A stretch of 62,614 nucleotides of DNA from a bacterium (GCA_030646955.1 JAUSKM010000033.1:1-62614); one strand, 5' to 3'; numbered from the stretch's first letter, positions 24,568 to 61,015 are shown. Program-made: numbers and translations. The notes: generated by a model from the sequence alone, not told the origin.

Positions 24568-26507
<1,940 letters not shown>

Positions 26508-36775: not shown

Positions 36776-36801
36776 CGGGCCGGACGGGACGGTGTTCGAA
36801 C
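36776..36801. repeat. Distal att-like direct repeat (partial copy of the tRNA-Asp 3' end)
   Basis: cgggccggacggga (36776-89) plus ttcgaac (36795-801) equals 41858..41878 except for a 5-nt insertion (cggtg). Confidence 0.65.
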
Positions 36802-37037
36802 AGGACTCCTGCAGGAAATTGCCGAATGGGCTGGAGTCGTGTGGAACGTGGAGGTGTGGGCACGGCAGGCGCAGGGATTACTCGTGGGAGTTTAGAAATC
36901 GAGCGAAAGCGGAGGCCGATACCGTTGGCGGATTCCGGAGCTTGAAATTTCAGTGTTTGATGAGTGGCGCAGAATTTTGGATTCCTCAGTTTCGGCAGAG
37001 ATCTGCAGGGTGTGATATACTTTCCACAGATAGTGTT

Positions 37038-37547
37038 ATGTCTCTCAACCAAGCAAAATACAATTCAAAGAAATTCAAAGAGCTGGTGCTTTATGTGGCC
37101 CAGCAATTTGGTGGCGAGATTAGAGGAAAGAAGCGACTGGCAAAGCTCCTCTACTTTGTTGACTTTGATTTTTTTGAGAAGTACGAGAAACCAGTGACGG
37201 GAAGCGTTTATCGTGCTCTGCCAATGGGTCCTTTTCCGGTCGAATTCCCTGAAGCTATCCGTGAACTAGAGAGTGATGGTTCGCTTTCGACACGCGCTGA
37301 CCAAGAGTGGGGTGAGGGGTACGAACCGACCGTTGTTTACCAAGCAAAACGTGAACCCGACCTCTCCGTTTTTTCGAAGGATGAGGTCGCGATGGTGGAT
37401 CGTGTCATCGGGAAGTACCGTAATCTCACCGGAACAGAGCTTGAGACGCTATCGCATTCGCAGGCCCCATTCGTCGGAACAAAGCCGGGAGAGGACATTG
37501 CCTACGAGCTCTCCTTCTACCGGGAAACCGACTTCAATGATGTTTAG
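37038..37547 (+). CDS. Panacea-domain (DUF4065, SocA-like) antitoxin candidate
   Basis: KKRLAKLLYFVDFDFFEKYEKPVTGSVYRALPMGPFP...LSHSQAPF is the DUF4065 signature. Start moved from 36792 to Met 37038. Confidence 0.8.
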   Translation: MSLNQAKYNSKKFKELVLYVAQQFGGEIRGKKRLAKLLYFVDFDFFEKYEKPVTGSVYRALPMGPFPVEFPEAIRELESDGSLSTRADQEWGEGYEPTVVYQAKREPDLSVFSKDEVAMVDRVIGKYRNLTGTELETLSHSQAPFVGTKPGEDIAYELSFYRETDFNDV

Positions 37548-37908
37548 TGTTGCTCGCCATTCAGCATTTGAGAAGGAGTTCCATGTCCTGTCAAAACGAC
37601 ACGGTCATTTTTTGGATAGGGCCATCGAATCATTCGAGCGTCTCTGTGAGAAACAGTTTGATCCCGTGAGCCCTGTACAGGTGATAGGTCCCGGGAAGTT
37701 GCACATAGTAGTGCAGTATGAGACGTATACGATTCGGAAGGTCGAACTTGCAGTTCCTACGCTGCGCAAGAATCAGTCGCCACGCGTTTGGTTTGCGCTC
37801 TGCGGAACGTCAATGTACTACCTCTGCATCGGAGTGCACGGAGACAACTACAGCGACAATGACATGGACAGAGTCGCCAAAGAGCGTGCGACAGATTTTT
37901 TTAGTTAA
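37537..37908 (+). CDS. Toxin candidate partnered with the Panacea antitoxin; RelE/ParE-like features
   Basis: Its start overlaps the antitoxin stop by 11 nt (ATGATG at 37537). Length is 123 aa. SAFEKEFHVLSKRHGHFLDRAIESFERL and RVWFAL...YYLCIGVHGD resemble the RelE/ParE/HigB layout, but the similarity is weak. Confidence 0.55.
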   Translation: MMFSVARHSAFEKEFHVLSKRHGHFLDRAIESFERLCEKQFDPVSPVQVIGPGKLHIVVQYETYTIRKVELAVPTLRKNQSPRVWFALCGTSMYYLCIGVHGDNYSDNDMDRVAKERATDFFS

Positions 37909-37920
37909 ATTTGTCGGTTG

Positions 37921-37953
37921 CACAAACTCCGCCCTACTAGGGCGGAGTTTGTG
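37921..37953. terminator. Bidirectional hairpin
   Basis: A 14-bp perfect stem cacaaactccgccc/gggcggagtttgtg with loop tacta. It lies between the toxin gene and the minus-strand remnant. Confidence 0.7.
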
Positions 37954-37964
37954 TTTGAGTTACT

Positions 37965-38202
37965 TTATTTCACCACATCGAACAACTTTTTCGGATCATC
38001 AAGCACCTTGAACTCCCAGATGCCGAAGTTGCCGTCGTTATTGACGGCTTGGATCCATTCTTCGGCGGCGGCCCATTTGGCTTTGTCCTGATCGCGGACT
38101 TGTTCCTTCACCTCTAAGAGTATGTGGCGGTCGTTCTCGAAACGGATGAGGAGGTCGGGGTAGTAGGCGTGAATCTGCCCCTGCCAGAGGTAGTAGATTT
38201 TT
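37965..38202 (-). pseudogene. Remnant of the C-terminus of a restriction-endonuclease/helicase-type protein (PD-(D/E)xK-like)
   Basis: The open frame has no start codon: KIYYLWQGQIHAYYPDLLIRFENDRHILLEVKEQVRDQDKAKWAAAEEWIQAVNNDGNFGIWEFKVLDDPKKLFDVVK*. The Y-PD(L/F)...LEVK core and the W..AVN..G.FG.W tail are typical of Res-type enzyme C-termini. A TAA stop lies immediately upstream. Confidence 0.5.
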
Positions 38203-38280
38203 TAAGACACGATCCGTCCTTTGACGTTGTTGCTCCTTTGTGCTAAGAACTACGGAAGCCCGTGATTAGCGCAAAGAAAT

Positions 38281-38712
38281 ATGTCTCGTATATCAACAAG
38301 AAGATTGGTGGTGATCCTCCTGTTTTTGTCCGTTTTTGCAGGAGCTGGTTGTCAGACGACCAGCCAAGCCGAGAATGTTGCTCCTGCGCGCAGTGCCCAA
38401 GCGGTGAGCATAGAGAGGCCCGCTGTCACCACTGTCATCAACACGGCACCATCCCAGGGGGCGCTCATTGTCCCGAGGGAGATGGCTCCGACTCCGAGTT
38501 GGCAACATGATCTTCCAGACAACAGCGTTGAGGATCTTCCCGCTCCTAGGGGGAAATACAAAAACGCTGATGGTCTCAATGTCCCGCGTCCTTACGTTGC
38601 GCCATCTGCACCCGTTGGTGCTTCAGCTCGATGTCGTGATGGAACGTACAGCTTCAGCCAGAATCGCAGAGGAACGTGCTCGCATCATGGAGGTGTTGCG
38701 GAGTGGCTTTGA
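38281..38712 (+). CDS. Lipoprotein with a C-terminal DUF3761 domain
   Basis: The lipobox is LSVFAGAGC. The C-terminus CRDGTYSFSQNRRGTCSHHGGVAEW matches the DUF3761 motif. Confidence 0.75.
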   Translation: MSRISTRRLVVILLFLSVFAGAGCQTTSQAENVAPARSAQAVSIERPAVTTVINTAPSQGALIVPREMAPTPSWQHDLPDNSVEDLPAPRGKYKNADGLNVPRPYVAPSAPVGASARCRDGTYSFSQNRRGTCSHHGGVAEWL

Positions 38713-38721
38713 TAATTGGCG

Positions 38722-41505
38722 CTACCTGAATAAGTTTGCAAACCAGCGAAATAGCCGCTTCCACCATGATGGTTTTGTCTCCGAGACCGCTTCATTGGTC
38801 TCTGTGGTGGAAGCATCTTGTATTGCGTCTTGGTGAGGATCCGCCTGCTCAGGTTCGATGACGATTGATTCCTCCGGAGCACTGTTCGGTTGTTGTTGGG
38901 TCCTTACATTTTCTGTGTCCGTGACCGGTGGCAGCTCCCTAGCTGGCGGTGGTCCAACGAGGTCCCCTGACTTGTTTGTTTTGGGGATGAATAGCTCAAG
39001 CGAATCAAGTTTGTTGAGGTCGATGTCTTCAAGGACAGATACTCTCGAGTACCTGTTGTTCATCGTGTCTCCTTGAGCGAGTGGCGCGTTGTTCGTCCAC
39101 GCATTGATCGTGTTTATTGAGAGAATGTACCCGAGCGCGTTTAGTTCACCCTTGACGACCGCTGACGGGATACCGATGTATGAGCCATCGCGAAGATACG
39201 CGCCACCTCCGGAGTTGCCGTGTTCAAGTATTGTGGTGGTTTTGAGGTATGCCCCGTCAGTACCACTGAAATCGCCACTCGTATACGTGAGCTTCGTGCC
39301 GAATTTCGCAGGAAATCCGTATGCGGCGATGTCGGAACCCAGTCGCGGGTTTTTGTTGCCCCTAGCTACATCGATGCTAGACAGCGGTCTGTTTTGTGGG
39401 TTCCTGAGCTTCAACAACGCAACATCTTGGCTCGGTGAGACTCTCACAATGTCCGCAATGTGTCTCTCTCCGAAGTACGGTTCGTCGTTGAAATCATTGA
39501 TGAACCCCACAAGACATCCGAGCGTCCCCGCTACCACATGCTTGTTCGTTAGAATCGCTCCACTCGAATCGATGACCGTCCCCGAGCCCTGACTTGCTTG
39601 ACGATAATTAACTGGGCAGAGCAATTTTACGGTTGCCTTGACGATTGTATCCTGACCAGTCACTTCTCCGTTTTGTGGAGGTTGTTGTGCGGGTCGGCTC
39701 GGTGTCTCACAGTATTGCGCAGTAGTAGGAGGTGCGGTCTCTGCGCTTGGGCAGTCGAATGACTTTAAACAGTTTCGATTTTGTATCCCCGAAAGAGAGC
39801 ATTCGCTCCAACCACCGCATGTCCACACGTCCGCATTACATGCTGGCTGCGGAGGAGTGCACGCTTGCACCGTCGCGGGTGAGGGAGTCGCGATGATTTG
39901 GCAATCAAATGTTTTGGTGCATGTTCGATTTTGAATACCGCGTCCCGAACATTCGTTCCAGTCATCACAAGACCATGTATCGACAGTGCATGTCGATTGT
40001 GGAGGTGTGCAGTTTTGCGAGGTTGCCGGTGATGGAGTTTCTGCGGTAGGACAATCAAATTTTTTGACACAACTTCTTGTTTGCGTTCCGTATGATGAGC
40101 ATTGATTCCAATCGCTACATGACCAAGTGTCAGTAGAGCATGGTGGAACGTAAGTACACGATTGAGACAACAGAGGATTGCCGCCGACGCATCCTGTCGG
40201 CGATGAAGAAATGACGCTTCTTGTTTGTTGCCCTGACGGAGAACATGCCGACCAATTGGAGTATGCCCACGCAGCGCATGTCGACACCCTAGCTCCAAGT
40301 ATCGTAATTGGAAAGGAATTACTATTGTTTTGTTCAGGGATGGAGATCACCAAGGGAACTTCCTGCCTGATCCTTGTTGAATTATCTTTGACTAGACTCG
40401 GGTCAACAATCCGTATTCGAATTTTTGTATCTGTCCAGCTGATCAAAAAACCCTTTCCTTGGGACTGACCATCAATAAAGACACCTGCCCCCGGCGATGC
40501 GACAAGACCGTCACCAATAATTGTTCTATCCCCGAATCCAGTACCAATAATATCAACCTCTTGATTAAAGTATGCGGAGGCGGGATTGATTGAATTAATT
40601 TTTGGGACTGGCGGCGTACAGCTTTGCTGTAATATTGGATTGCCGCCCGCGCATCCTTCAGGCGATGAGGAAATTATTGTTCGTGATTGCTGCCCATTCA
40701 TTGAGCAAGCATCCCAGCTTGAGTACGTCCATGAGGCGCAAATCGGCGGGGTGTAGGTACAGGATTGTGATGTCGTAGGAGCGGAAACGCCACCCTCGCA
40801 ATCAGAATTTTTACCACACGTTCTCGCCTGTGTTCCTGATGGAGCACATGCGCTCCAGTTCTCGCAAGAGTAGTCGTTTGCCGTACAGGCAGTAGTGCAC
40901 GATTGGGTGAGCACCGGCTCACCGCCAGTACAGCCGTTTGGAGAGGAAGAGAGAACTGTTCTTGTTTGCTGGTTATTGGTACACGCACTCCATTCGGAGT
41001 ACGTAAGGGTAATGCAGGTAGGAGGCGGTGGAACGTAAGTGGCTAGAGTGCCGCGTGTGCAGATTCCTTGATTGTCGGACGCAGAAGCGTACTTCCTTAA
41101 AATGACGTAGGAGCCCAAAGTGCTGCCAGACCCAGGAGCAATCTCAAATTGAATTTCGTTGTCACTCCATGAAAGGAGTCCGAATGGCGTATCATTCACG
41201 CCATCTATTGATCCGCGCCCCCGATAAACCATGAGCACCCCATTATCAGTCGGAACGTAGAGCATCTCGGGGATAGAATCGTCGATGTTCCTGTCGCCAA
41301 ATCCTGTTCCCAGGATCTTCACAACGTCGCCACGAGTAGTCAGGTTCGATGGGGTGAACTCTGATCCAGCAAGGCATCCTGTTGTTTGAAAATCGGTAGC
41401 GGAGTAGGAGCTAGTTGCCGCACGAGCGGACGTAGCACTCGCGAAGAAAATCAACAGGAAGACAACGACGGGCAAGTATTTTTTGATTCTCATATTCATG
41501 TGCAT
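38722..41505 (-). CDS. Secreted trypsin-like (S1/Trypsin_2) serine protease with two IPT/TIG-like segments and seven Cys/Trp TSR-like repeats
   Basis: The signal peptide is KKYLPVVVFLLIFFASATSARA. The triad motifs are TNKHVV (His codon 39538-40), DVALLKL (Asp 39424-26) and GNSGGG (Ser 39211-13). The repeats lie at about 39700..41020. Confidence 0.8.
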   Translation of the reverse strand: MHMNMRIKKYLPVVVFLLIFFASATSARAATSSYSATDFQTTGCLAGSEFTPSNLTTRGDVVKILGTGFGDRNIDDSIPEMLYVPTDNGVLMVYRGRGSIDGVNDTPFGLLSWSDNEIQFEIAPGSGSTLGSYVILRKYASASDNQGICTRGTLATYVPPPPTCITLTYSEWSACTNNQQTRTVLSSSPNGCTGGEPVLTQSCTTACTANDYSCENWSACAPSGTQARTCGKNSDCEGGVSAPTTSQSCTYTPPICASWTYSSWDACSMNGQQSRTIISSSPEGCAGGNPILQQSCTPPVPKINSINPASAYFNQEVDIIGTGFGDRTIIGDGLVASPGAGVFIDGQSQGKGFLISWTDTKIRIRIVDPSLVKDNSTRIRQEVPLVISIPEQNNSNSFPITILGARVSTCAAWAYSNWSACSPSGQQTRSVISSSPTGCVGGNPLLSQSCTYVPPCSTDTWSCSDWNQCSSYGTQTRSCVKKFDCPTAETPSPATSQNCTPPQSTCTVDTWSCDDWNECSGRGIQNRTCTKTFDCQIIATPSPATVQACTPPQPACNADVWTCGGWSECSLSGIQNRNCLKSFDCPSAETAPPTTAQYCETPSRPAQQPPQNGEVTGQDTIVKATVKLLCPVNYRQASQGSGTVIDSSGAILTNKHVVAGTLGCLVGFINDFNDEPYFGERHIADIVRVSPSQDVALLKLRNPQNRPLSSIDVARGNKNPRLGSDIAAYGFPAKFGTKLTYTSGDFSGTDGAYLKTTTILEHGNSGGGAYLRDGSYIGIPSAVVKGELNALGYILSINTINAWTNNAPLAQGDTMNNRYSRVSVLEDIDLNKLDSLELFIPKTNKSGDLVGPPPARELPPVTDTENVRTQQQPNSAPEESIVIEPEQADPHQDAIQDASTTETNEAVSETKPSWWKRLFRWFANLFR

Positions 41506-41825
41506 TATTACAATAATTTGCTTGTTGTAGTAAGTCCTATCTGCCTTTGACCCTCAGAAAGTCAATCTAGTCGGGGAGAGCACAAAGCCCCCCGCCAGCC
41601 AGACGACCTTTCGGTCGCCCATGCCCTTTCGGGCATGACCATCCCTGGATGGCTGAACGAGGGGTTCAGTACCAGGGATGGATTTGGATTGCCATGCCGT
41701 CCTATGAGGACGGTTTAGGCACGGGTTCAATTGGTGAACAAGGAGCAATCCCGCGCTTCGGGACTACAAACCCATCGTATCAAAAAACAGCAGCAATCAA
41801 CCAATGATGCAATGCGCACACAACG

Positions 41826-41852
41826 CAAAACGCGCCCCCTTGCGGGGACGCG
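41826..41852 (-). terminator. Hairpin with T-run downstream of tRNA-Asp
   Basis: On the minus strand, cgcgtcccc-gcaa-gggggcgcg (one mismatch) is followed by ttttgcg. Confidence 0.55.
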
Positions 41853-41857
41853 CTTTG

Positions 41858-41933
41858 CGGGCCGGACGGGATTCGAACCCGCGATCTTCGCCGTGACAGG
41901 GCGACGCGTTGAACCGGGCTACGCTACCGGCCC
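41858..41933 (-). tRNA. tRNA-Asp (anticodon GTC)
   Basis: Hand-folded: acceptor GGGCCGG/CCGGCCC, discriminator G, D arm GCGT/ACGC, anticodon stem TCGCC/GGCGA, loop CT-GTC-AC, T arm GCGGG-TTCGAAT-CCCGT. CCA is not encoded. Confidence 0.9.
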
Positions 41934-44190: not shown

Positions 44191-44249
44191 GATGGGAAGC
44201 TCTTTCCATCCAAACATTGCTATGCGCCCAAATAGGGCGGGGAGGTTCC

Positions 44250-45506
44250 ATGGTTTGGCTTTTGGTGTCCGTGCTCTTGGTGCTCCTGGCGGCCGGCATC
44301 GTGGTCTACCTGGTCCTGCATCCGGGGACGTTCAGTCGGATGGGGCAGCGACGTCGAGCACGGAGGAATCTCAAGCAGATCCGGGCGCAGTTTGCGCCAA
44401 CGCAGGTGCCGGTGCGGCAATTGGTGCGCACCGGACCGCCGCGGGTGCAGCTCCACAACCTGTACGATGACCTTCATCCGCCGCGGTATCGGGGCGGAGG
44501 TGCGTCGAGCGGGATCCATCGCATCGTGGATTGGATCTTCCGCGGCTCCGTCTACGTGCTGACGACGCTCGTGGTGCTGACGGGTGCGCTCATCGTGGGG
44601 CTCGGCCTCATCTCGGCGGATCTGCCGATGGCGGTGTGGATGATGGTGTGGTCCATCCTCATCCTCATCGCAGTTGCGGTAGGTGTGCTGCTCATCCTCG
44701 GAATGCGGCTGGTGCAGTCCGGCATCGGTGATGGGTGGTGGGGAACGTTCGCGCGCCTCATTGCATCCATCGCGCTCGTCTGCATCCTTGCGCTCATCGC
44801 GCCGATCGCATGGGCGGGGATCGCCGATGCGGGTACGGGTGCGGCTGCCGCAGCAGTGGTGCTTCCACCGGCACCGGTAGGACTCTCGCCGGCAGCGGTA
44901 CAGGGGCGCACGCAGGCCATCGCAGCGGCATATGAGGGGATTCGCAACGATCCAGATACCTTCGCCATCGCGGCGGATGTATTTCGGTACCGTACGCTCG
45001 TGGACAAGTATGCGGCGGACTACGACCTCGATCCGCTGCGCGTGGCGGCGATGATTGCGCAGGAGTCGGCCGGCGATCCAGATGCGATGAGTTCGGCAGG
45101 TGCGTTGGGGCTCATGCAGCTCATGCCGAAGACCGCCCTGGAGTTCGGCTCGACATCGTGCGGCTTGACGCATCGCATGCTCCGGCGGCAGCCCCAGGCG
45201 AACATCTGCACCGGAACGGCATACTACCGGCACTGCACCGGGGTGTTCCGCGGAGATGGTGAGACCGCGCTTGCCGCATACAATGCCGGAGAACATCGCG
45301 TGCAATCCGCATTCGAAAAGCACGGTAATCCCACGGCAAGCTTCTGGACGCATCTCGATACCGGCGCGCTCCCGCAGGAGACCCGCGATTACGTGCCGCG
45401 GGTGCTCGCGTGGGAAATGGCACTGCGCTTCCTGGAGCGCAACCCCGATGCGCCGCTCCCGCCGCTCGCGCATGCGGCACCGGATGGCGCTCGCACGAGC
45501 GCGTGA
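44250..45506 (+). CDS. Membrane-anchored lytic transglycosylase (SLT/GH23 domain)
   Basis: GGAGG lies 4 nt upstream of ATG 44250. Several N-terminal TMs are present. The SLT motifs are AAMIAQESAGDPDAMSSAGALGLMQLMP...AAYNAGEHRV. Confidence 0.8.
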   Translation: MVWLLVSVLLVLLAAGIVVYLVLHPGTFSRMGQRRRARRNLKQIRAQFAPTQVPVRQLVRTGPPRVQLHNLYDDLHPPRYRGGGASSGIHRIVDWIFRGSVYVLTTLVVLTGALIVGLGLISADLPMAVWMMVWSILILIAVAVGVLLILGMRLVQSGIGDGWWGTFARLIASIALVCILALIAPIAWAGIADAGTGAAAAAVVLPPAPVGLSPAAVQGRTQAIAAAYEGIRNDPDTFAIAADVFRYRTLVDKYAADYDLDPLRVAAMIAQESAGDPDAMSSAGALGLMQLMPKTALEFGSTSCGLTHRMLRRQPQANICTGTAYYRHCTGVFRGDGETALAAYNAGEHRVQSAFEKHGNPTASFWTHLDTGALPQETRDYVPRVLAWEMALRFLERNPDAPLPPLAHAAPDGARTSA

Positions 45507-46102: not shown

Positions 46103-49100
46103 ATGAGTACGGCACGCGATGAACGCAAACGGACGGAGGACGAAGCGCCAAGTGAGCGCTTGGCGGACGGCGTTGCGTTGGAGAAGCTGATCACACAGCT
46201 TCGCGATACCGTTGTCCTTGCGCAAACGCATGTTTTGAATATCCATGAGGCACGCGAACGCATCGAGCAATTGATTGACCAGCATCCGTACGTGTTGCCG
46301 GAAGAAGGGCGCACGAGGTTGGATCAAATCAAAGCAGAAGCGGAAGATGATCTACATACACTGCAGGCGCGCATGGATGAGGAGTTGCCTCTGCTGGAGG
46401 GCGCTGATCTGGAAGCGGTGACGGATGATGCTCCGGTGTCAAAGAGTTTCGCGGACGTGGAGCCGATGGGGGTTCCGCAATTTGCGTCTGGTGATGCTGC
46501 AATTCAGGAGCAGGGTGATGCGAGCGAATCGTACGGGCTTCCAAGTGCCATGAGTCGCGTGCTCATGGATGCACGTCATGCTATTGATCAGGCGCAGGAT
46601 GTGAAAACGGTGCTGGAATTGTGCGCGTCATACGAGAAAGAATTGCAGCAATTGGTGGAGCGAGAAGATCATGATTTTCCTGGGGCTGACGCGCCGCACT
46701 ACGCACAGCGAGCGGTGGAGCGTTTGGGGTTATATGCGACTGATCGTTTGACACGGTTGCATCCAGCCAATTCTCCAAAGCGTGCTGCAGATCGAGCGGC
46801 GGAGCGCGGCACAGGCGCGTTAGAGGAGCATGCTCCGTCGGCCCTTTTTACCGCGTTACTGCAAAAGATCCGCAAAGAAATAGCTGATGCGCGGGACGAT
46901 GTCAGTGGCGAACGTTTGGAGGAGCGCGTTGCTGATCTCATCTACGCGTTTCCGCGTGACCTCACCCCCACGGAAGCAGCGGAGCTCGATTTTATACAGA
47001 CACGAGCGTACAGCGGATCATCGGAACGCGGGAGGGATACGCATGATGTTGCGGGCGATGTCCCGGGAGATGTCGTGAGTATTGGCGCAGCGGAAGTGCG
47101 TGGGACGGATTTCGATTTTCCGTCGTTGGACGCGGCGGTGGCGGATACCGCGGGGCCGGAGGCGGTGCGATACGCGACGGCGGAGCAGATTGAGCACAAT
47201 CAAGAGCTTGTGGACGCCGTTTCGGTGCTCGCGGCTGTCGCGGCAGACGTTGCGGGTGGCCTGCGAGAGGGGAACGTACAAGATGCGCTTGCGCATATCG
47301 CGCGCGAGTTGAATATTCCGGCATCGGAGGTGGAGGCGGTGTTGGCGGAGCAGCATCTGCTCCTGGTGCAGGACGCACAACGCGATGTGTTGGCGGGACG
47401 TGCGCCGCAGCTGGACACAAAGACGGACAAGGCGAAGTTCGCAATGAAGACGCTCGCGAAAATCGGCGCGTATGCGGGCGCGGGCGTGCTCTTGGCATCG
47501 GCTGCGGCTTCCGGCGGCATGACCGTGGCGTTGGGCGGCGGAGCAATTGCGCTCACGCGTATGTTGGGTATTGCGCGCAGTGGGCGGAAGATTCAGGAAG
47601 AAGTGCAGGGGCGTCTGCAAGCGGTGGATGTGCTGCTGCGCACCGATGCGTACGAGCCGTCGCGTCTACGCATTGAGCAGGCGATTGCGGCGCACCTCGC
47701 GGAACGGAAGCGTAGGGCGCTTGGCATGCCGGAGGACCCACGCCGTACGCTCATCGAGGCAGACGCTACGCTCACCGAAGCAGAACGCGAGCAGACACTG
47801 CACGCATATGGTGCATTGCAGGGCGTTGACGCAGGCACCCGGGCGAAGGAGGATGCGCTGACCGATGCCATGCAAGAGGCCGCGGAGCAAGATGCTACAA
47901 CCGTAAAGAAGCTGAACGCATTTGCGCGGCTGGGGAAGACGACAGGCGACGTGCTCAAGCAGTTCTGGCGCGGCGGCGATACTACAGATGAGAAAATGCT
48001 CACCGCTGGCGTGTTTGGCATGGCTGGCGCAATCGCGTACGAAATACCGGTGGTGCGCAACGTCCTCGGCGCGTACGGCGGGGCGAAGGCAATGGAAGCG
48101 ATCCAGAAGATGCGCGGGAAGCGCGCGAGCGTTGTGGGTCGCATCGCAGGCGCAATTGCGGGTGCACTGGCTCCAGAGGCGATCCGCTACGTTGCGGGGA
48201 GTGGGATTGCGCACGGCGCGTCATCGGTTGAGCATGCAACGGCCGAGCAACCCGTCGCACCTGCGCCGGACGCGGAATCGGGCGCAGGGCATGCGCCAGC
48301 GGTTCATGATACAGAACCTTCTGCTAAGGATATTGCGGAGCTTGATGCAATTGCGTATCGGCGGTTGGCGATCGTGCACGCGGAACAGCCCGGGGATGGG
48401 TGGACGCACGTCCGAGCGCGAGAGATTTACGCCCAGGAGCATCCGGAAATGCGCGCGCATGAGGTGGTCGCGAAGATGGAAGATCACAAGCAGATGATCG
48501 CGGAGCTGCGCCGCGCGCATGGCGAGGCGTATGCGGCGGATCCCAAGAATTGGGATTCCGAGCGTGCGTTTGATCTTGATGCCATTCTCCAGGCAAAGCG
48601 CGATGCGGTTGAGGCGGGGAATCTTACTACTGATTGGAAGCCGGAAGGAGCGGGGGATGGCGAGGAGTATGTCACACGCCATACACCGGATGCCCTGCGT
48701 CTGCAGGGCGAGCAATTCATGCCGATGCTTGAGGCCATGCGCCAAGGAGCGGGGCCGTTGCAGGCATTTATTGATAACGACTATCAACAATTCACGGATT
48801 ATCCGGACACGCGGAGCTACGGTGTTGCACTGGTAGCTGCCGAGCAGCGCCTGACAGCGCTCGAGCGCACGATCGAATCGCTCCCCGCGGGTGAGTCCCG
48901 CAACGCGCTCGCAAAAGAGCTGCGTGGCTATCGGCCGTGGATCAATCACTACGTTGGGGTTCTGCGGGGATCGGGATGGACAGACGAAGCGTTGGGTATC
49001 AATCAGCCGGAAGTCCCGCCGTTGCCGCCTGTTGAGGATATTGTTTCGTCTCCAGCGACAGCAGGAGATGTTACTCCCGTAGCGGCTGTTGTAATTGACG

Positions 49101-50245
49101 ATACTGCTGACGCGTCGGATTTGGATGAAGAGCCGGAAACGGAAGTGGAGTCGCCTGCGGAGGTGCGCGCCGACGTACCTGATCAATTTGCGGATGTGCA
49201 GCCGATAAACGACAGCTCTCCGTTTGAGGCAGTGCAGCGTCGTGCACTGCGCGTCGGTGCATATGAAACGTATCGCGAAGGTTTGCAGGACGCGAACATA
49301 CGCTTGAGTGAGGGGGAGGCGACGTTTGGGGCAAACCGCATGCTCATATATGCGCGCAATCTGGATCAGATGCTCATGGAGCAGACGCAGAACGTTCGCG
49401 TTCTATGGGAAAATCGTATAGCGGCAGGTGATTATGCACGTGTTGTGCATGGAGCGGCGCAAACTTCCCCAGACATGTACGCGCGCAATCTGGAGGAGTT
49501 CAAAACGCAATTCCCCGGTGTCTTGCGGGAGGGTCGTATCACGCAGTACGAGAATAATATTGCGCAACTGCGAACGCTCCTCGGGCAGGCACAGGAGGCG
49601 GGCAATGGGCACGTTGCAGGTGCGGAACCAGTTCAAACCGTGCCGCTGGATGCGCTTGTTGGCGGTACTGCCCCCGTTGAGCAGCAGGTGCGTCCTTCGG
49701 CATCGCCGCCAGATGATTTACCAGTTGTCATTTTGGAAGCAGACAAGCCGGTCTCTGCGGATGGGGAGTACGCCGGAGAGCAGGATGATGATGCGAACGG
49801 ATTTGACGACGTGGTTGCAGGAGACGACGCGGAATTCAAAGCGGCAGCAGCCGCCGAGACGGCAAAGCAAGCCGAGAGCGAAGTACAGACCGTCCGCGAA
49901 GTGCAGGAGCGGTGGGGTAATACTTTTACGCCAACGAAAGGCGGACAAGGTATCCTCTATCGTATGCCAGGAAGCGAAACTTCAATCACATTGGGGGATA
50001 TTCGCGCAATGGAGGATCGTTCTGTGCGCGAAGTACTCATGGACGTAGCCAAGTCCGGTATTTCCGATGGGCGAAAGCAATTTGGAAAAATGCTCTTTGA
50101 TGGACTTGCCGCAAAGCACCCGGAATGGATTTTAGGTCCACACGCGCCGACGCTTGACGAGATTATGGACGGTCTCGGAAGAACCAAGAACGCGAGACTC
50201 GTAGCGTATCTGCAAATGAATCCGCAGCTGCTGGGCAGTCCGTGA
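46103..50245 (+). CDS. Giant (1380 aa) acidic, largely helical protein with two Gly/Ala-rich membrane-like segments; unknown function
   Basis: It is the longest ORF in the window. The hydrophobic segments are IGAYAGAGVLLASAAASGGMTVALGGGAIAL and LTAGVFGMAGAIAYEIPVV...IAGAIAGALAP. No family motif was recognised. Confidence 0.7.
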   Translation: MSTARDERKRTEDEAPSERLADGVALEKLITQLRDTVVLAQTHVLNIHEARERIEQLIDQHPYVLPEEGRTRLDQIKAEAEDDLHTLQARMDEELPLLEGADLEAVTDDAPVSKSFADVEPMGVPQFASGDAAIQEQGDASESYGLPSAMSRVLMDARHAIDQAQDVKTVLELCASYEKELQQLVEREDHDFPGADAPHYAQRAVERLGLYATDRLTRLHPANSPKRAADRAAERGTGALEEHAPSALFTALLQKIRKEIADARDDVSGERLEERVADLIYAFPRDLTPTEAAELDFIQTRAYSGSSERGRDTHDVAGDVPGDVVSIGAAEVRGTDFDFPSLDAAVADTAGPEAVRYATAEQIEHNQELVDAVSVLAAVAADVAGGLREGNVQDALAHIARELNIPASEVEAVLAEQHLLLVQDAQRDVLAGRAPQLDTKTDKAKFAMKTLAKIGAYAGAGVLLASAAASGGMTVALGGGAIALTRMLGIARSGRKIQEEVQGRLQAVDVLLRTDAYEPSRLRIEQAIAAHLAERKRRALGMPEDPRRTLIEADATLTEAEREQTLHAYGALQGVDAGTRAKEDALTDAMQEAAEQDATTVKKLNAFARLGKTTGDVLKQFWRGGDTTDEKMLTAGVFGMAGAIAYEIPVVRNVLGAYGGAKAMEAIQKMRGKRASVVGRIAGAIAGALAPEAIRYVAGSGIAHGASSVEHATAEQPVAPAPDAESGAGHAPAVHDTEPSAKDIAELDAIAYRRLAIVHAEQPGDGWTHVRAREIYAQEHPEMRAHEVVAKMEDHKQMIAELRRAHGEAYAADPKNWDSERAFDLDAILQAKRDAVEAGNLTTDWKPEGAGDGEEYVTRHTPDALRLQGEQFMPMLEAMRQGAGPLQAFIDNDYQQFTDYPDTRSYGVALVAAEQRLTALERTIESLPAGESRNALAKELRGYRPWINHYVGVLRGSGWTDEALGINQPEVPPLPPVEDIVSSPATAGDVTPVAAVVIDDTADASDLDEEPETEVESPAEVRADVPDQFADVQPINDSSPFEAVQRRALRVGAYETYREGLQDANIRLSEGEATFGANRMLIYARNLDQMLMEQTQNVRVLWENRIAAGDYARVVHGAAQTSPDMYARNLEEFKTQFPGVLREGRITQYENNIAQLRTLLGQAQEAGNGHVAGAEPVQTVPLDALVGGTAPVEQQVRPSASPPDDLPVVILEADKPVSADGEYAGEQDDDANGFDDVVAGDDAEFKAAAAAETAKQAESEVQTVREVQERWGNTFTPTKGGQGILYRMPGSETSITLGDIRAMEDRSVREVLMDVAKSGISDGRKQFGKMLFDGLAAKHPEWILGPHAPTLDEIMDGLGRTKNARLVAYLQMNPQLLGSP

Positions 50246-56601: not shown

Positions 56602-57204
56602 ATGTCCCACAGCATCACTCGATTCATCGCGCACAACCGGCGGTACGCGCTCGGCGTTGCGCTTGCGGGCGGCGCGATCGCGTTGGTCTTCTCGTTGGTC
56701 CAGCCGCTTGCGTACCGCGCGACGATGCGGCTCCTCATCATTCAGGCGACCTCGCCGACGCTGGATGCGTACACGGCGGTGAAATCGTCGGAGAAGGTGG
56801 GGCGCAACCTCGGGCACGTCATCGCATCGTCCTCATTCCTGGACCGCGTGCTCCAGGTAAACCCGGAGATTGATCGCGCCGCATTCCCGGAGAACGAGCG
56901 CGCGCGGCGTCGGGCATGGGGGCGAACGGTGGAGTCCTCGGTGGCTGCAGAGTCCAGCATTATGGAGGTGCGTGTGTACCACGAGCGACAGGCGCAGGCC
57001 GTGGCGATTGCGGATGGGATTGGGAGCGTACTGGTACGAGACGCAAAGGATTACACTGGCAGTCGCGATATCACCGTGCGCGTCATTGATTCGCCGCTCA
57101 TCTCGCGGTTTCCCGTCCGGCCCAACATTGCCCTCAACGTGCTCCTCGGCTTCCTCTTCGGCGCTGCGTTGGCGCTTGCCCAGCGGTACCTCTTTTCGCG
57201 GTAA
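56602..57204 (+). CDS. Short Wzz/CapA/YveK-like polysaccharide co-polymerase (PCP-2b-like)
   Basis: It has an N-terminal TM, a loop of about 130 aa, and PVRPNIALNVLLGFLFGAALALA, the conserved Pro-rich motif plus C-terminal TM. Confidence 0.6.
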   Translation: MSHSITRFIAHNRRYALGVALAGGAIALVFSLVQPLAYRATMRLLIIQATSPTLDAYTAVKSSEKVGRNLGHVIASSSFLDRVLQVNPEIDRAAFPENERARRRAWGRTVESSVAAESSIMEVRVYHERQAQAVAIADGIGSVLVRDAKDYTGSRDITVRVIDSPLISRFPVRPNIALNVLLGFLFGAALALAQRYLFSR

Positions 57205-59374: not shown

Positions 59375-61015
59375 GTGAAGCAGCAGAGCATGATCCTGGC
59401 CGCGCTGGTCGTGGCGTTCTTGGGCGCCTCCTGCAAGGAGCGTACCGTTCTGTTGGGAACGCTGGGGAGCGAGAGCTTCTCGGCGGACACCGACGACGAC
59501 AGCGCCACGGACGACGATGCCGCCTCGGCGGACGACGACGCGGGCGGTTGCACGTTCAATGCGGACTGCGACGACGGCGAGGTGTGCGACGCCGCGACGG
59601 CCGCCTGCGTGGCGGTCCCCGGTGCCTCCACCGATGACGACGCCTCGGACGACGACGCGGCCAGCGACGACGATACCGTCGCGTGTGGCGGCGAGGTGTG
59701 TCTGGACGGCGTGGACAACGACTGCGATGGCGTGGCGGACGAGGGATGCCCCGGCGACGGCACGGTGCACGCGGCCGATGCCGACGACGACAGCGCCTCG
59801 GATGACGATGCCGCCTCCGGCGACGACGATACCGCCGCGACCGACGACGACAGCGCCTCGGACGATGATGCGGCCGGCGACGACGACGCGGCTCCCGCGG
59901 GCGAGATCTGCGACGGCAGCGACAACGATGGCGATGGCGTGACGGACGAAGGATGTCCGGATGCCGGCGACGACGACACCGCGGACGCGGATGACGATGC
60001 TTCCGGCGACGATGACGCCGCATCCGACGACGACAGCGCCACGGACGACGACAGCGCCACGGACGACGACGCGGCCGGCGACGACGACGCGGCTGCTGGC
60101 TGCACGAGCAACGCCGACTGTGCGGAGGACGAGTCGTGCCTGCCGGCGGGCGATGTGCCCTTCACATGCACGCCCGACGCGGACCGCGACACCGTCGCGG
60201 ACGCGGACGACAACTGCCCGAACGCCGCCAACTTCGACCAGGCCGATGTGGACGAGGACGGCACGGGCAACATCTGCGACAGCGAGGAGTGCGACGGCGA
60301 GGACAACGACGGCGATGGCGATGCGGACGAGGGCGACCCGTGCAACTGGCCGTCCACCGGTCGCATGTGCCTGGCCGATGCCTGTACGCCCGACGCGGAC
60401 CGCGACACCGTCGCGGACGCGGACGACAACTGTCCCGCCTCGGCCAACGTCGATCAGGCGGACGCGGACGAGGACGGCACCGGTGACGAGTGCGAGACGG
60501 TGGAGCCCGCCGGGGACGACGACGCGGCAGGCGACGACGATGCCGCCTCGGACGACGATTCCACGGGTGACGACGACGCTTCCGGGGACGACGATTCCAC
60601 GGGTGACGACGATACCGCGGACGAGGATCTGGTCCTCACGTGCGCCTTCACGGTGCCGACCACCGATCCGCTGACCGGCGATTCGCTCCCGCCCCCGGAT
60701 GCCAGCGCGCGGTTCTGTGCAAGCTTCGTGGCGCCCGGCGTCCCGTGGCGGTGCGCGCTCACGCCGCTCCCCGGCGATCGCATCGTGCGCGTGACGTACA
60801 CGGTCACGCCCGACGTGCACTACGGGAACTACTGCTCGTCGTCCTGCGATAGCGCCGATGACGGTGTTTGGATGTTCGTCATGGATTCCATGGGCGTGCT
60901 CCAACAGCGCGTGACCATGACGTGCAACGTGAACGGCACGAGCGTGTCGCCCACGCTCGCGGAGAACCCGCAGCACACGGGCGGCAATGCCCGCCTGGAC
61001 CTCACGGGCCTCTAG
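59375..61015 (+). CDS. Hyper-acidic lipoprotein with DDDxxxDDD tracts, two CxDGxDNDCDGxxDEGCP motifs and two thrombospondin type-3-like Ca-binding repeats
   Basis: A GGAGAGGAG Shine-Dalgarno precedes the GTG start. The lipobox is FLGASC. The motifs are CLDGVDNDCDGVADEGCP and CDGSDNDGDGVTDEGCP, plus DADRDTVADADDNCPNAANFDQADVDEDGTGNIC and a second copy. The C-terminal domain of about 130 aa is non-repetitive and contains Cys. Confidence 0.7.
   Translation: MKQQSMILAALVVAFLGASCKERTVLLGTLGSESFSADTDDDSATDDDAASADDDAGGCTFNADCDDGEVCDAATAACVAVPGASTDDDASDDDAASDDDTVACGGEVCLDGVDNDCDGVADEGCPGDGTVHAADADDDSASDDDAASGDDDTAATDDDSASDDDAAGDDDAAPAGEICDGSDNDGDGVTDEGCPDAGDDDTADADDDASGDDDAASDDDSATDDDSATDDDAAGDDDAAAGCTSNADCAEDESCLPAGDVPFTCTPDADRDTVADADDNCPNAANFDQADVDEDGTGNICDSEECDGEDNDGDGDADEGDPCNWPSTGRMCLADACTPDADRDTVADADDNCPASANVDQADADEDGTGDECETVEPAGDDDAAGDDDAASDDDSTGDDDASGDDDSTGDDDTADEDLVLTCAFTVPTTDPLTGDSLPPPDASARFCASFVAPGVPWRCALTPLPGDRIVRVTYTVTPDVHYGNYCSSSCDSADDGVWMFVMDSMGVLQQRVTMTCNVNGTSVSPTLAENPQHTGGNARLDLTGL

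Follow-up and report, generated by a model that had tools for sequence, protein, structure and literature searches.

A putatively secreted, Patescibacteria-typical serine protease carries two flavours of a bacterial Cys/Trp repeat, probably a distant relative of the thrombospondin type-1 repeat

Thrombospondin type-1 repeats (TSRs; TSP_1 and TSP1_ADAMTS in Pfam) are regarded as characteristic of extracellular and parasite-adhesion proteins in eukaryotes, with examples such as TSR2 and TSR3 of thrombospondin-1 (TSP-1; 1LSL), TSR6 of Toxoplasma MIC2 (8J64_B), UNC5A (4V2A) and properdin. In the animal ADAMTS enzymes, tandem TSRs accompany a secreted protease, and these ancillary repeats are thought to set localisation and substrate targeting. 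The C-terminal domain of pleiotrophin and midkine (PTN_MK_C) has been described as a TSR-like heparin-binding fold. Here we describe a gene from a bacterial stretch of DNA of 62,614 nucleotides (nt) (GCA_030646955.1, JAUSKM010000033.1:1-62614; hereafter the window, from whose first letter all coordinates are counted). The gene, at 38722..41505 on the minus strand, encodes a predicted secreted multidomain serine protease of 927 amino acids (aa), as judged from the list of open reading frames (ORFs), a Trypsin_2 match and 274 homologues, and this protein carries seven Cys/Trp repeats. On the sequence evidence, the repeats belong to one real bacterial family with two flavours and about 2,000 clusters, for which neither Pfam nor NCBIfam holds a model, and their kinship with TSRs is probable and distant.

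In genomes of the Candidate Phyla Radiation (CPR, or Patescibacteria), large Cys-rich extracellular proteins have been proposed to serve attachment in Peribacteria, together with a dependence on external peptides, and weak similarity of these proteins to Myxococcus Cys-rich repeats and to pappalysin has been noted (PMC4736985). They share a signal peptide, a high Cys content and an extracellular location with the protein considered here, and they vary between strains; PMC4736985 describes neither this repeat nor its fusion to a protease. Cultivated Patescibacteria are presented in PMC12206443 as episymbionts whose mechanisms of host recognition are largely unknown.

The protein is laid out as a signal peptide, a TIG-like segment, three Cys repeats, a second TIG-like segment, four further Cys repeats, a Trypsin_2 domain, a linker and a tail. 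An earlier reading of the same DNA, the original prediction, had proposed an ORF with a signal peptide, TIG-like segments, seven repeats, a catalytic triad and a C-terminal tail, and all of these features are present where it had placed them. Thirty-six of the 40 Cys residues in the protein lie within the repeats. Three units are of flavour 1 and contain four Cys each: repeat 1 (aa 164-206; 40888..41016, domain E=1.9e-20), repeat 3 (aa 256-300; 40606..40740, E=3.3e-22) and repeat 4 (aa 410-455; 40141..40278, E=2.8e-23). The other four are of flavour 2 and contain six: repeat 2 (aa 207-255; 40741..40887, E=3.8e-20), repeat 5 (aa 456-505; 39991..40140, E=5.6e-20), repeat 6 (aa 506-555; 39841..39990, E=1.6e-21) and repeat 7 (aa 556-602; 39700..39840, E=3.2e-19). 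All are on the minus strand, as is every part of the gene. The original prediction had given each repeat six Cys, which is true of four of the seven units only. The hidden Markov models (HMMs) behind these values were built solely from units of the homologues, and E-values of 2e-20 to 3e-23 for flavour 1 and 3e-19 to 2e-21 for flavour 2 are far beyond chance; scanned with the same models, none of the other ORFs in the window carries these repeats.

Repeat units were taken from the 120 listed among the 274 homologues found by a whole-protein search, and gave 586 unique units, 338 of flavour 1 and 248 of flavour 2. Flavour 1 conserves its four Cys at 99-100%, a Tyr at 99%, a Trp at 96%, an Arg and a Pro at 99% each, and a Gly-Gly pair at 91/96%; exactly four Cys are found in 297 of the 338 units. 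Flavour 2 conserves six Cys at 99-100%, together with two Trp (85% and 98%), a Gly (87%), a Gln (93%), an Arg (98%), a Lys (85%) and a Pro (94%). Cys and Trp positions are hence conserved across homologues, and the repeats matched no bacterial domain already described with another fold. The two flavours are homologous to one another (hhalign 98%, E=3e-13), and in the hhalign register Tyr and Val of flavour 1 occupy the places of Cys2 and Cys4 of flavour 2. An internal Cys is missing from only two flavour 2 units, both of which lack Cys2 and Cys4 together. The most economical disulfide map for flavour 2 would be C1-C5, C2-C4 and C3-C6, the C2-C4 pairing being suggested because these two residues are lost together and are both lacking in flavour 1; flavour 1 would then, most economically, be the same fold without the C2-C4 bridge, its own four Cys being predicted to pair as C1-C3 and C2-C4.

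A search of 1.84 billion representative proteins with the flavour 1 profile retrieved 1,980 clusters at E<=1e-3, 1,299 at E<=1e-10 and 342 at E<=1e-30. The original prediction had considered such repeats unusual in bacteria, a view that these 1,980 clusters do not support. Named examples are found in CPR bacteria, Myxococcota, Nitrospirota, Methylomirabilota and Bdellovibrionota; outside the protease family, the named owners include Candidatus Methylomirabilis, Dojkabacteria, Pseudobdellovibrio, Anaeromyxobacteraceae and Nitrospirota, and their proteins are annotated as hypothetical or by their other domains alone. In Pfam and NCBIfam scans of the whole protein and of single repeats no family covers the repeats, and no precomputed Pfam annotation lies over the repeat region among the listed homologues, in agreement with the suggestion in the original prediction of a bacterial repeat family not yet described. 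In the literature on bacterial and CPR TSR-like repeats no description was found, which cannot prove that none exists. Identity with the Myxococcus Cys-rich repeat was considered and rejected, as there was no NCBIfam match.

The number of repeats per homologue ranges from 1 to 13 or more, and the repeats are fused to S8 subtilases, cytochrome c, beta-helix/GH141, FG-GAP, SH3 and LamG domains. Outside CPR bacteria, an Anaeromyxobacteraceae protein (P0100) and two others (P0088 and P0091) join them to mono- or di-haem cytochrome c, which suggests that not only hydrolases but also redox proteins are positioned by the module.

Relationship to the TSR was examined with curated models, predicted structures and profile comparisons. 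No unit in the window, and none of 120 diverse units, reached the gathering score of the curated TSP1 models PF00090, PF19030 and PF19028; the best window unit scored 14.3 bits with TSP1_ADAMTS, for which 23.8 are needed (E=0.05). Among the 120 units, sub-threshold Pfam matches were to TSP1_ADAMTS (10), TSP_1 (6), ELAPOR1_C (3) and PTN_MK_C (2), the best TSP1 match having E=0.0026. The summed repeats of P0100 exceed the gathering score of PTN_MK_C (46.7 vs 25.3 bits), with no individual stretch passing. PTN_MK_C is likewise a small, disulfide-rich, three-stranded module; unlike in pleiotrophin and midkine, basic heparin-binding clusters are not evident here, and the window's own units give no PTN_MK_C match.

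One unit of each flavour, repeat 4 for flavour 1 and repeat 5 for flavour 2, was modelled with AlphaFold 2 from family alignments. The models have predicted local distance difference test (pLDDT) scores of 91.6 and 94.4, respectively, and three strand regions each, at positions matching those of the elongated TSR fold (a rippled strand A plus a B-C hairpin); the predicted fold is a three-stranded TSR-like layer and not the Cys-knot that the original prediction had envisaged. In Foldseek comparisons with the PDB, the top five matches of flavour 2 are all TSR-bearing (MIC2 TSR6, UNC5A, properdin and a chain of the complement soluble membrane attack complex), and the next three are unrelated. The best of them is Toxoplasma MIC2 TSR6, with 33% identity, a template modelling (TM) score of 0.54-0.55 and a Foldseek probability of 0.91. 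Flavour 1 matches chains of complement C6-C9, UNC5A, MIC2 (the proMIC2 chain) and the TSR-like protein ELAPOR1. The leading matches have TM scores of 0.47-0.55, but every Foldseek match has E>=0.45 and is non-significant. Searches of PDB sequences returned nothing even at E<=10 with both repeat profiles (hmmsearch), and chance-level matches at E>=0.1 with the repeat block of the window (phmmer).

Profile comparisons were made against two TSR references. The smaller held seven sequences, for which a TSP-1 TSR2 sequence was verified against 1LSL, 3R6B and 7YYK and TSRs were harvested from alignments; against this thin reference hhalign gave 27% for flavour 1 and 5.5% for flavour 2. The deeper was a 123-unit TSR profile derived from 120 collected TSP_1-annotated sequences. 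Against it, flavour 1 reached 84% with all columns (P=8e-6, score 27.9; best of 60 shuffles 15.4, reversed profile 12.3) and 72% with match columns (P=3e-5, score 24.6; best of 150 shuffles 18.0), and none of the 210 shuffles attained the real score. A single column-shuffle that scored an anomalous 128.9 was absent from 300 more match-column shuffles and was treated as an insert-column artefact. Flavour 2 reached 65% with all columns (P=6e-5, score 24.1) and 19% with match columns (P=1e-3, score 18.4; best of 150 shuffles 18.1). Flavour 2 is borderline on its own, and its link to the TSR runs through flavour 1.

The alignment between flavour 1 and the TSR spans 45 columns. The conserved Tyr and Trp fall over the second and third TSR Trp, W-x-x-C falls over Cys1, G-x-Q-x-R lies on G-x-x-x-R, the invariant Pro lies on the TSR Pro, and the last two Cys lie on Cys4 and Cys5. 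A deletion of three residues removes TSR Cys2, the second Cys of CSxTCG, and Cys6 is missing as well. The repeats share with TSRs a size of about 45-50 aa, a predicted three-stranded elongated fold, first-strand aromatics followed by W-x-x-C, a G-x-(Q)-x-R in the second strand, a Pro after strand B, two Cys matching C4 and C5, and a tandem arrangement in secreted proteins near proteases, as in ADAMTS. Unlike TSRs, they are bacterial, they have one (flavour 1) or two (flavour 2) N-terminal Cys, and their putative disulfide map differs.

Several defining elements of the TSR are lacking. In place of the WxxWxxW ladder of Trp residues, only two aromatic positions are conserved in each flavour; a Phe or Trp stands two residues ahead of the conserved Tyr in flavour 1, and a Cys stands between the two Trp of flavour 2 where TSRs hold their middle Trp. 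The RxRxR ladder is reduced to a single Arg (98-99%), with a Gln (88-93%) at -2. The six-Cys pattern of TSRs (C1-C5, C2-C6 and C3-C4, or the group-2 pattern) is absent, since flavour 2 is without C2 and C6 and has two additional N-terminal Cys. The original prediction had recognised the canonical TSR hallmark motif in these units, which is not what they contain, given that the second Cys of CSxTCG is missing and Q-x-R replaces R-x-R; the resemblance that it had noticed is real at the level of fold and profile, by Foldseek and hhalign.

How this resemblance arose can be read in several ways. The repeats could be an independent bacterial disulfide mini-beta fold that came by convergence to a W..C...G.Q.R-like motif and a three-stranded shape, an account that we regard as a serious minority view. 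It would fit the failure of all units at the curated TSP1 thresholds, the empty PDB profile searches, the non-significant Foldseek values, the borderline score of flavour 2, the single Arg, and Cys positions and a putative pairing that differ from C1-C5/C2-C6/C3-C4. Nevertheless, three independent weak signals speak for the TSR superfamily and not for another type of Cys-rich fold. First, TSR-bearing or TSR-like proteins make up the five best Foldseek matches of flavour 2 and almost the entire list of flavour 1. Second, the sub-threshold Pfam matches concentrate on TSP1 and PTN_MK. Third, flavour 1 reaches 72-84% in hhalign and outscores the reversed control as well as every one of the 210 shuffles, and its alignment keeps W, C, G, Q/R, P and another two Cys in register across the 45 columns. 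Judged by profiles and predicted models together, the repeats are probably distant, simplified relatives within the TSR superfamily. By their sequences they are not members of TSP_1 as defined, since the Arg ladder is missing from them, as are the third Trp and the Cys arrangement of canonical TSRs. A direct eukaryotic source, by which genuine TSP1 repeats would have been fused to a bacterial protease for binding of host matrix, seems to us scarcely credible. The motif resemblance, the eukaryotic owners of the structural matches, which are TSR-bearing proteins, and the position of the gene within a horizontally acquired islet (see below) could be taken to favour it. However, where an owner of one of the closest relatives is named, it is a free-living or groundwater Patescibacterium or another bacterium; the family comprises 1,980 clusters with two sub-types of its own; and the units, which do not pass the TSP_1 models, are short of TSR Cys2 and Cys6 as well as of the Arg ladder. 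Moreover, the window comes from a CPR bacterium, and the cultivated relatives of this organism are said to live on other microbes (PMC12206443).

If the repeats are truly related to TSRs, the origin of the fold would move back into bacteria. A bolder version, which we think unlikely, would hold that the TSR fold is not a eukaryotic invention at all; the bacterial family would be its deep prokaryotic branch or ancestor, and would serve in CPR episymbionts as the recognition arm of mobile, swappable cassettes with an S1 or S8 protease domain, kept at a membrane by the Trp/Arg amphipathic tail, for attachment to or attack on partner cells. A relationship to TSRs would also justify a new Pfam/InterPro entry, annotating about 2,000 clusters, all of which, where a source name was found, at present go by 'hypothetical protein', and would offer a handle on the surface-interaction proteins of CPR/Patescibacteria, whose cell-cell recognition is poorly understood.

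The catalytic part of the protein is an S1 domain of the HtrA-like Trypsin_2 type (aa ~621-840; 38986..39645). Trypsin_2 (PF13365) matches aa 640-779 over its full profile (1-144) with 62.9 bits against a gathering score of 27.6 (E=7e-17). Of the three domains for which the original prediction had recommended a scan, Trypsin_2 therefore passes, whereas TSP_1 and TIG remain below their gathering scores. The triad occurs in the order H656 (TNKHV), D694 (DVALLKL) and S765 (GNSGGG), and is invariant in an alignment of 29 orthologues, as are C630 and C664; because the triad is invariant, the enzyme is expected to be active. Its nearest NCBIfam and PDB relatives are S1 proteases of the HtrA/DegP/HhoA/MarP type, matched in the catalytic core alone (PDB HtrA family, E~1e-9). 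With HtrA/DegP (MEROPS S1C) it shares the Trypsin_2 domain, the His-Asp-Ser triad and, putatively, the character of an exported enzyme. Unlike HtrA/DegP, a Pfam scan of the protein finds no PDZ domain, and the TIG and Cys-repeat array at the N-terminus and an amphipathic tail at the C-terminus are present instead. The HtrA/DegP equivalog model TIGR02037 falls far short (46.5 vs 416.2 bits) and covers the protease core only, and none of the scores comes near an equivalog cut-off.

At the other end of the protein, aa 1-28 (41422..41505) look like a signal peptide, with a basic n-region (K8/K9), a hydrophobic core from L11 to A22 and an ARA|A motif; K9 is almost invariant among orthologues, and the N-terminal pattern is conserved. 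Two IPT/TIG-like segments follow, segment 1 at aa ~45-160 (41026..41373) and segment 2 at aa 301-409 (40279..40605), which align with each other (BLASTP E=2e-6) and contain the motifs GDVVKILGTGFGDR...LLSWSDNEI (aa 59-118) and NQEVDIIGTGFGDR...LISWTDTKI (aa 313-358), respectively. The Pfam TIG model PF01833 is missed by a small distance (17.9 vs 20.9 bits, E=0.003, with the best stretch at aa 301-347). Segment 2 aligns with residues 446-500 of an S8 subtilase (P0058; E=7.5e-4), a region in which Pfam TIG is matched at E=1.9e-17, and several orthologues have precomputed PF01833 matches.

The N-terminal region at aa 30-163 (window 41016-41418) is 75% identical to the N-terminus of the same S8 subtilase and 53% identical to that of a second one (P0074), both of which bear the repeats as well; a locus examined with this comparison is L084 4651-8388. 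This identity points to a single targeting arm recently shuffled between S1 and S8 proteases. As the same N-terminal arm stands on different catalytic domains, it would be a targeting module in its own right.

Between the protease domain and the C-terminus lies a low-complexity linker rich in Pro, Gln and Glu, as read from the sequence (aa 841-910; 38776..38985), and in orthologues, too, the tail follows a similar linker, either acidic or rich in Gln. The tail itself is a cationic amphipathic Trp/Arg/Phe peptide, KPSWWKRLFRWFANLFR (aa 911-927; 38725..38775), in which aa 913-927 have the highest helical hydrophobic moment of the whole protein (0.86). A tail motif (S/P)WWKR(L/F)Fx W(L/F)xNLF recurs in many orthologues, and others have the less cationic variant KGFSLFGWMFRLFAK. 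The tail matched none of the curated sorting-signal models. The conserved amphipathic tail and the exchange of modules between S1 and S8 proteases speak for a modular construction that is open to experimental testing.

The protease family concerned is uncharacterised and typical of the lineage, and the protein is an ordinary representative of it; we infer its function to be that of a surface-tethered, targeted protease. In the proposed mechanism, a Sec-type signal peptide would export the protein, and its N-terminal two thirds would form an elongated array of TIG, three Cys repeats, TIG and four Cys repeats. Oxidation of the 36 repeat Cys would yield a stiff arm of three-stranded modules, held by two (flavour 1) or three (flavour 2) disulfides each around a core of aromatic and Arg residues. 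This array would act as a rigid reach-and-bind module that carries the protease to some surface or polymer, for which the envelope of a host or partner cell, or extracellular protein, would be the most plausible candidate. There the HtrA-like S1 domain would cleave proteins, and so either provide this biosynthetically poor organism with peptides or remodel the site of contact, and the flexible acidic linker and cationic amphipathic C-terminal helix would keep the enzyme at the membrane interface. The coupling of a secreted protease to TSR-like ancillary repeats is a design shared with ADAMTS; unlike in ADAMTS, the protease has a serine S1 fold and not that of a zinc metalloprotease, the repeats are N-terminal to it, and the owner is bacterial, so the likeness is one of design and not of descent.

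We consider it somewhat probable overall that the protein is a multidomain serine protease of a kind typical of Patescibacteria, exported and rich in disulfides, and that it works in this manner. Besides the Foldseek values, the empty PDB profile searches and the match-column score of flavour 2 given above, several points weigh against it: the signal peptide was recognised by eye; with one conserved Arg, a TSR-type groove for heparin or another ligand cannot be assumed; no conserved gene neighbourhood indicates a partner or substrate; and no integrase or recombinase occurs among the ORFs of the islet that carries the gene. The array might also be simply a rigid, protease-resistant spacer that holds the enzyme away from the cell surface and binds no ligand, which we judge to have an appreciable though lesser chance of being correct. 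The wide variation in repeat number among homologues would suit a spacer, as would conserved positions that are structural (Cys, aromatic, Pro, Gly) and not surface residues, and the attachment of repeats to many unrelated catalytic domains. Conversely, the conservation of a whole N-terminal module at 75% identity across different protease folds suggests selection beyond length, eukaryotic TSR-like and TIG modules are typically binding modules, and the roles of binding and spacing are not mutually exclusive. For the C-terminal Trp/Arg peptide, the alternative to an anchor is an effector that acts on membranes: the protease would release or present it, and it would permeabilise the membrane of the partner cell. 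Its charge of +5, its richness in Trp and Phe, its strong amphipathicity (hydrophobic moment 0.86), its conservation in orthologues, its location after a long flexible linker beside the protease domain and the lack of a match to known sorting signals would all agree with such a role. This proposal is drawn purely from composition, the variant KGFSLFGWMFRLFAK is less cationic, and amphipathic C-terminal helices are known to anchor exported enzymes to the membrane of the producer, as in low-molecular-weight penicillin-binding proteins; we therefore find an effector improbable and prefer the tail as a membrane anchor.

The host genome can be placed from other genes of the window, which also encodes GroEL, pyruvate kinase, ComEC and a type IV pilus ATPase. 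The GroEL (24885-26507) is 84-85% identical to those of Candidatus Uhrbacteria, and 91% identical to that of one metagenome-assembled genome, so the organism is a high-GC, Candidatus Uhrbacteria-like Patescibacterium. The best named homologues of the protease are 'trypsin-like peptidase domain-containing proteins' of Patescibacteria, Parcubacteria and Wolfebacteria. Its full architecture is found in dozens of protein clusters, those in named genomes being nearly all from Patescibacteria, and relatives with the full architecture reach up to 59% identity in Gribaldobacteria, Magasanikbacteria, Falkowbacteria, Buchananbacteria and Parcubacteria. A few matches lie on contigs of 2-5 kb binned to other phyla, and may be mis-binned. 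With so many Patescibacteria sharing it, the architecture is typical of the lineage and not unusual, contrary to the expectation in the original prediction that such repeats are not normally fused to Trypsin_2 domains. In viral collections, only distant relatives of the protease domain were found.

The genomic setting of the family differs between members. The closest homologue with long coverage, which has the same tail (P0005; L083 8478-13282), is encoded on a contig of 13.6 kb together with a Prim-Pol/PriCT_1 primase, a large serine recombinase and a collagen-like protein, and this setting is mobile-element-like. Another homologue (P0006) is located among housekeeping genes.

In the window, the protease gene lies within a low-GC islet of ~5.07 kb (36790..41857), recognised by its gene content and by a GC fraction of 0.45-0.55 inside against 0.60-0.70 in both flanks. 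A tRNA-Asp(GTC) gene, found by ARAGORN at 41857..41933 on the minus strand, lies directly upstream of the protease gene, and its 3' end (41858-41871) is repeated exactly as a 14-nt direct repeat, CGGGCCGGACGGGA, at the opposite GC drop (36776..36789, plus strand), as a displaced tRNA 3' end. By chance, 0.06 matches to this 14-mer are expected per window. Each copy is preceded by a terminator-like hairpin. The repeat of the tRNA 3' end and the low GC content together indicate an element of ~5.07 kb inserted at the 3' end of the tRNA gene.

The islet looks like a decayed or trans-mobilised integrative islet. Horizontal acquisition is supported by these sequence features, within bacteria, with another Patescibacterium as the most likely donor; in the proposed history, the gene would have arrived in a high-GC, Uhrbacteria-like genome on the ~5-kb islet by insertion into the tRNA-Asp 3' end. 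Of the horizontal origin set out in the original prediction, acquisition as such thus stands on the low-GC islet, the tRNA-Asp and the 14-nt repeat, and a eukaryotic source does not, the closest relatives being bacterial and the curated TSP_1 thresholds having been failed.

Besides the protease, the islet carries a SocA/Panacea ORF, an ORF overlapping it and a DUF3761 protein. The ORF with the SocA/Panacea antitoxin domain (36792-37547, plus strand; Pfam E=7e-19) and the overlapping ORF (37273-37908, plus strand), which has no family match, may be a toxin-antitoxin pair that stabilises the islet. The DUF3761 protein (38281-38712, plus strand; E=6e-24) is small and exported or lipoprotein-like, and its gene converges on the protease gene with a gap of 10 nt. 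A third copy of the 14-mer with one mismatch, TGGGCCGGACGGGA, is present at 57111-57124 on the minus strand, where ARAGORN gives no tRNA; it could be the remnant of a tRNA end or a chance match.

Elsewhere in the window, a 546-aa ORF (59375-61015, plus strand) has weak NCBIfam matches to an Omp28-related selenoprotein domain (E=3e-8) and to a thrombospondin type-3-like MtsC MYXO-CTERM protein (E=7e-6), and is unrelated to the type-1-like repeats. Directly downstream of an SLT lytic transglycosylase gene (44217-45506) there is an ORF of 1,380 aa (46103-50245, plus strand) with no Pfam match at E<=0.01, which may be another large surface protein.

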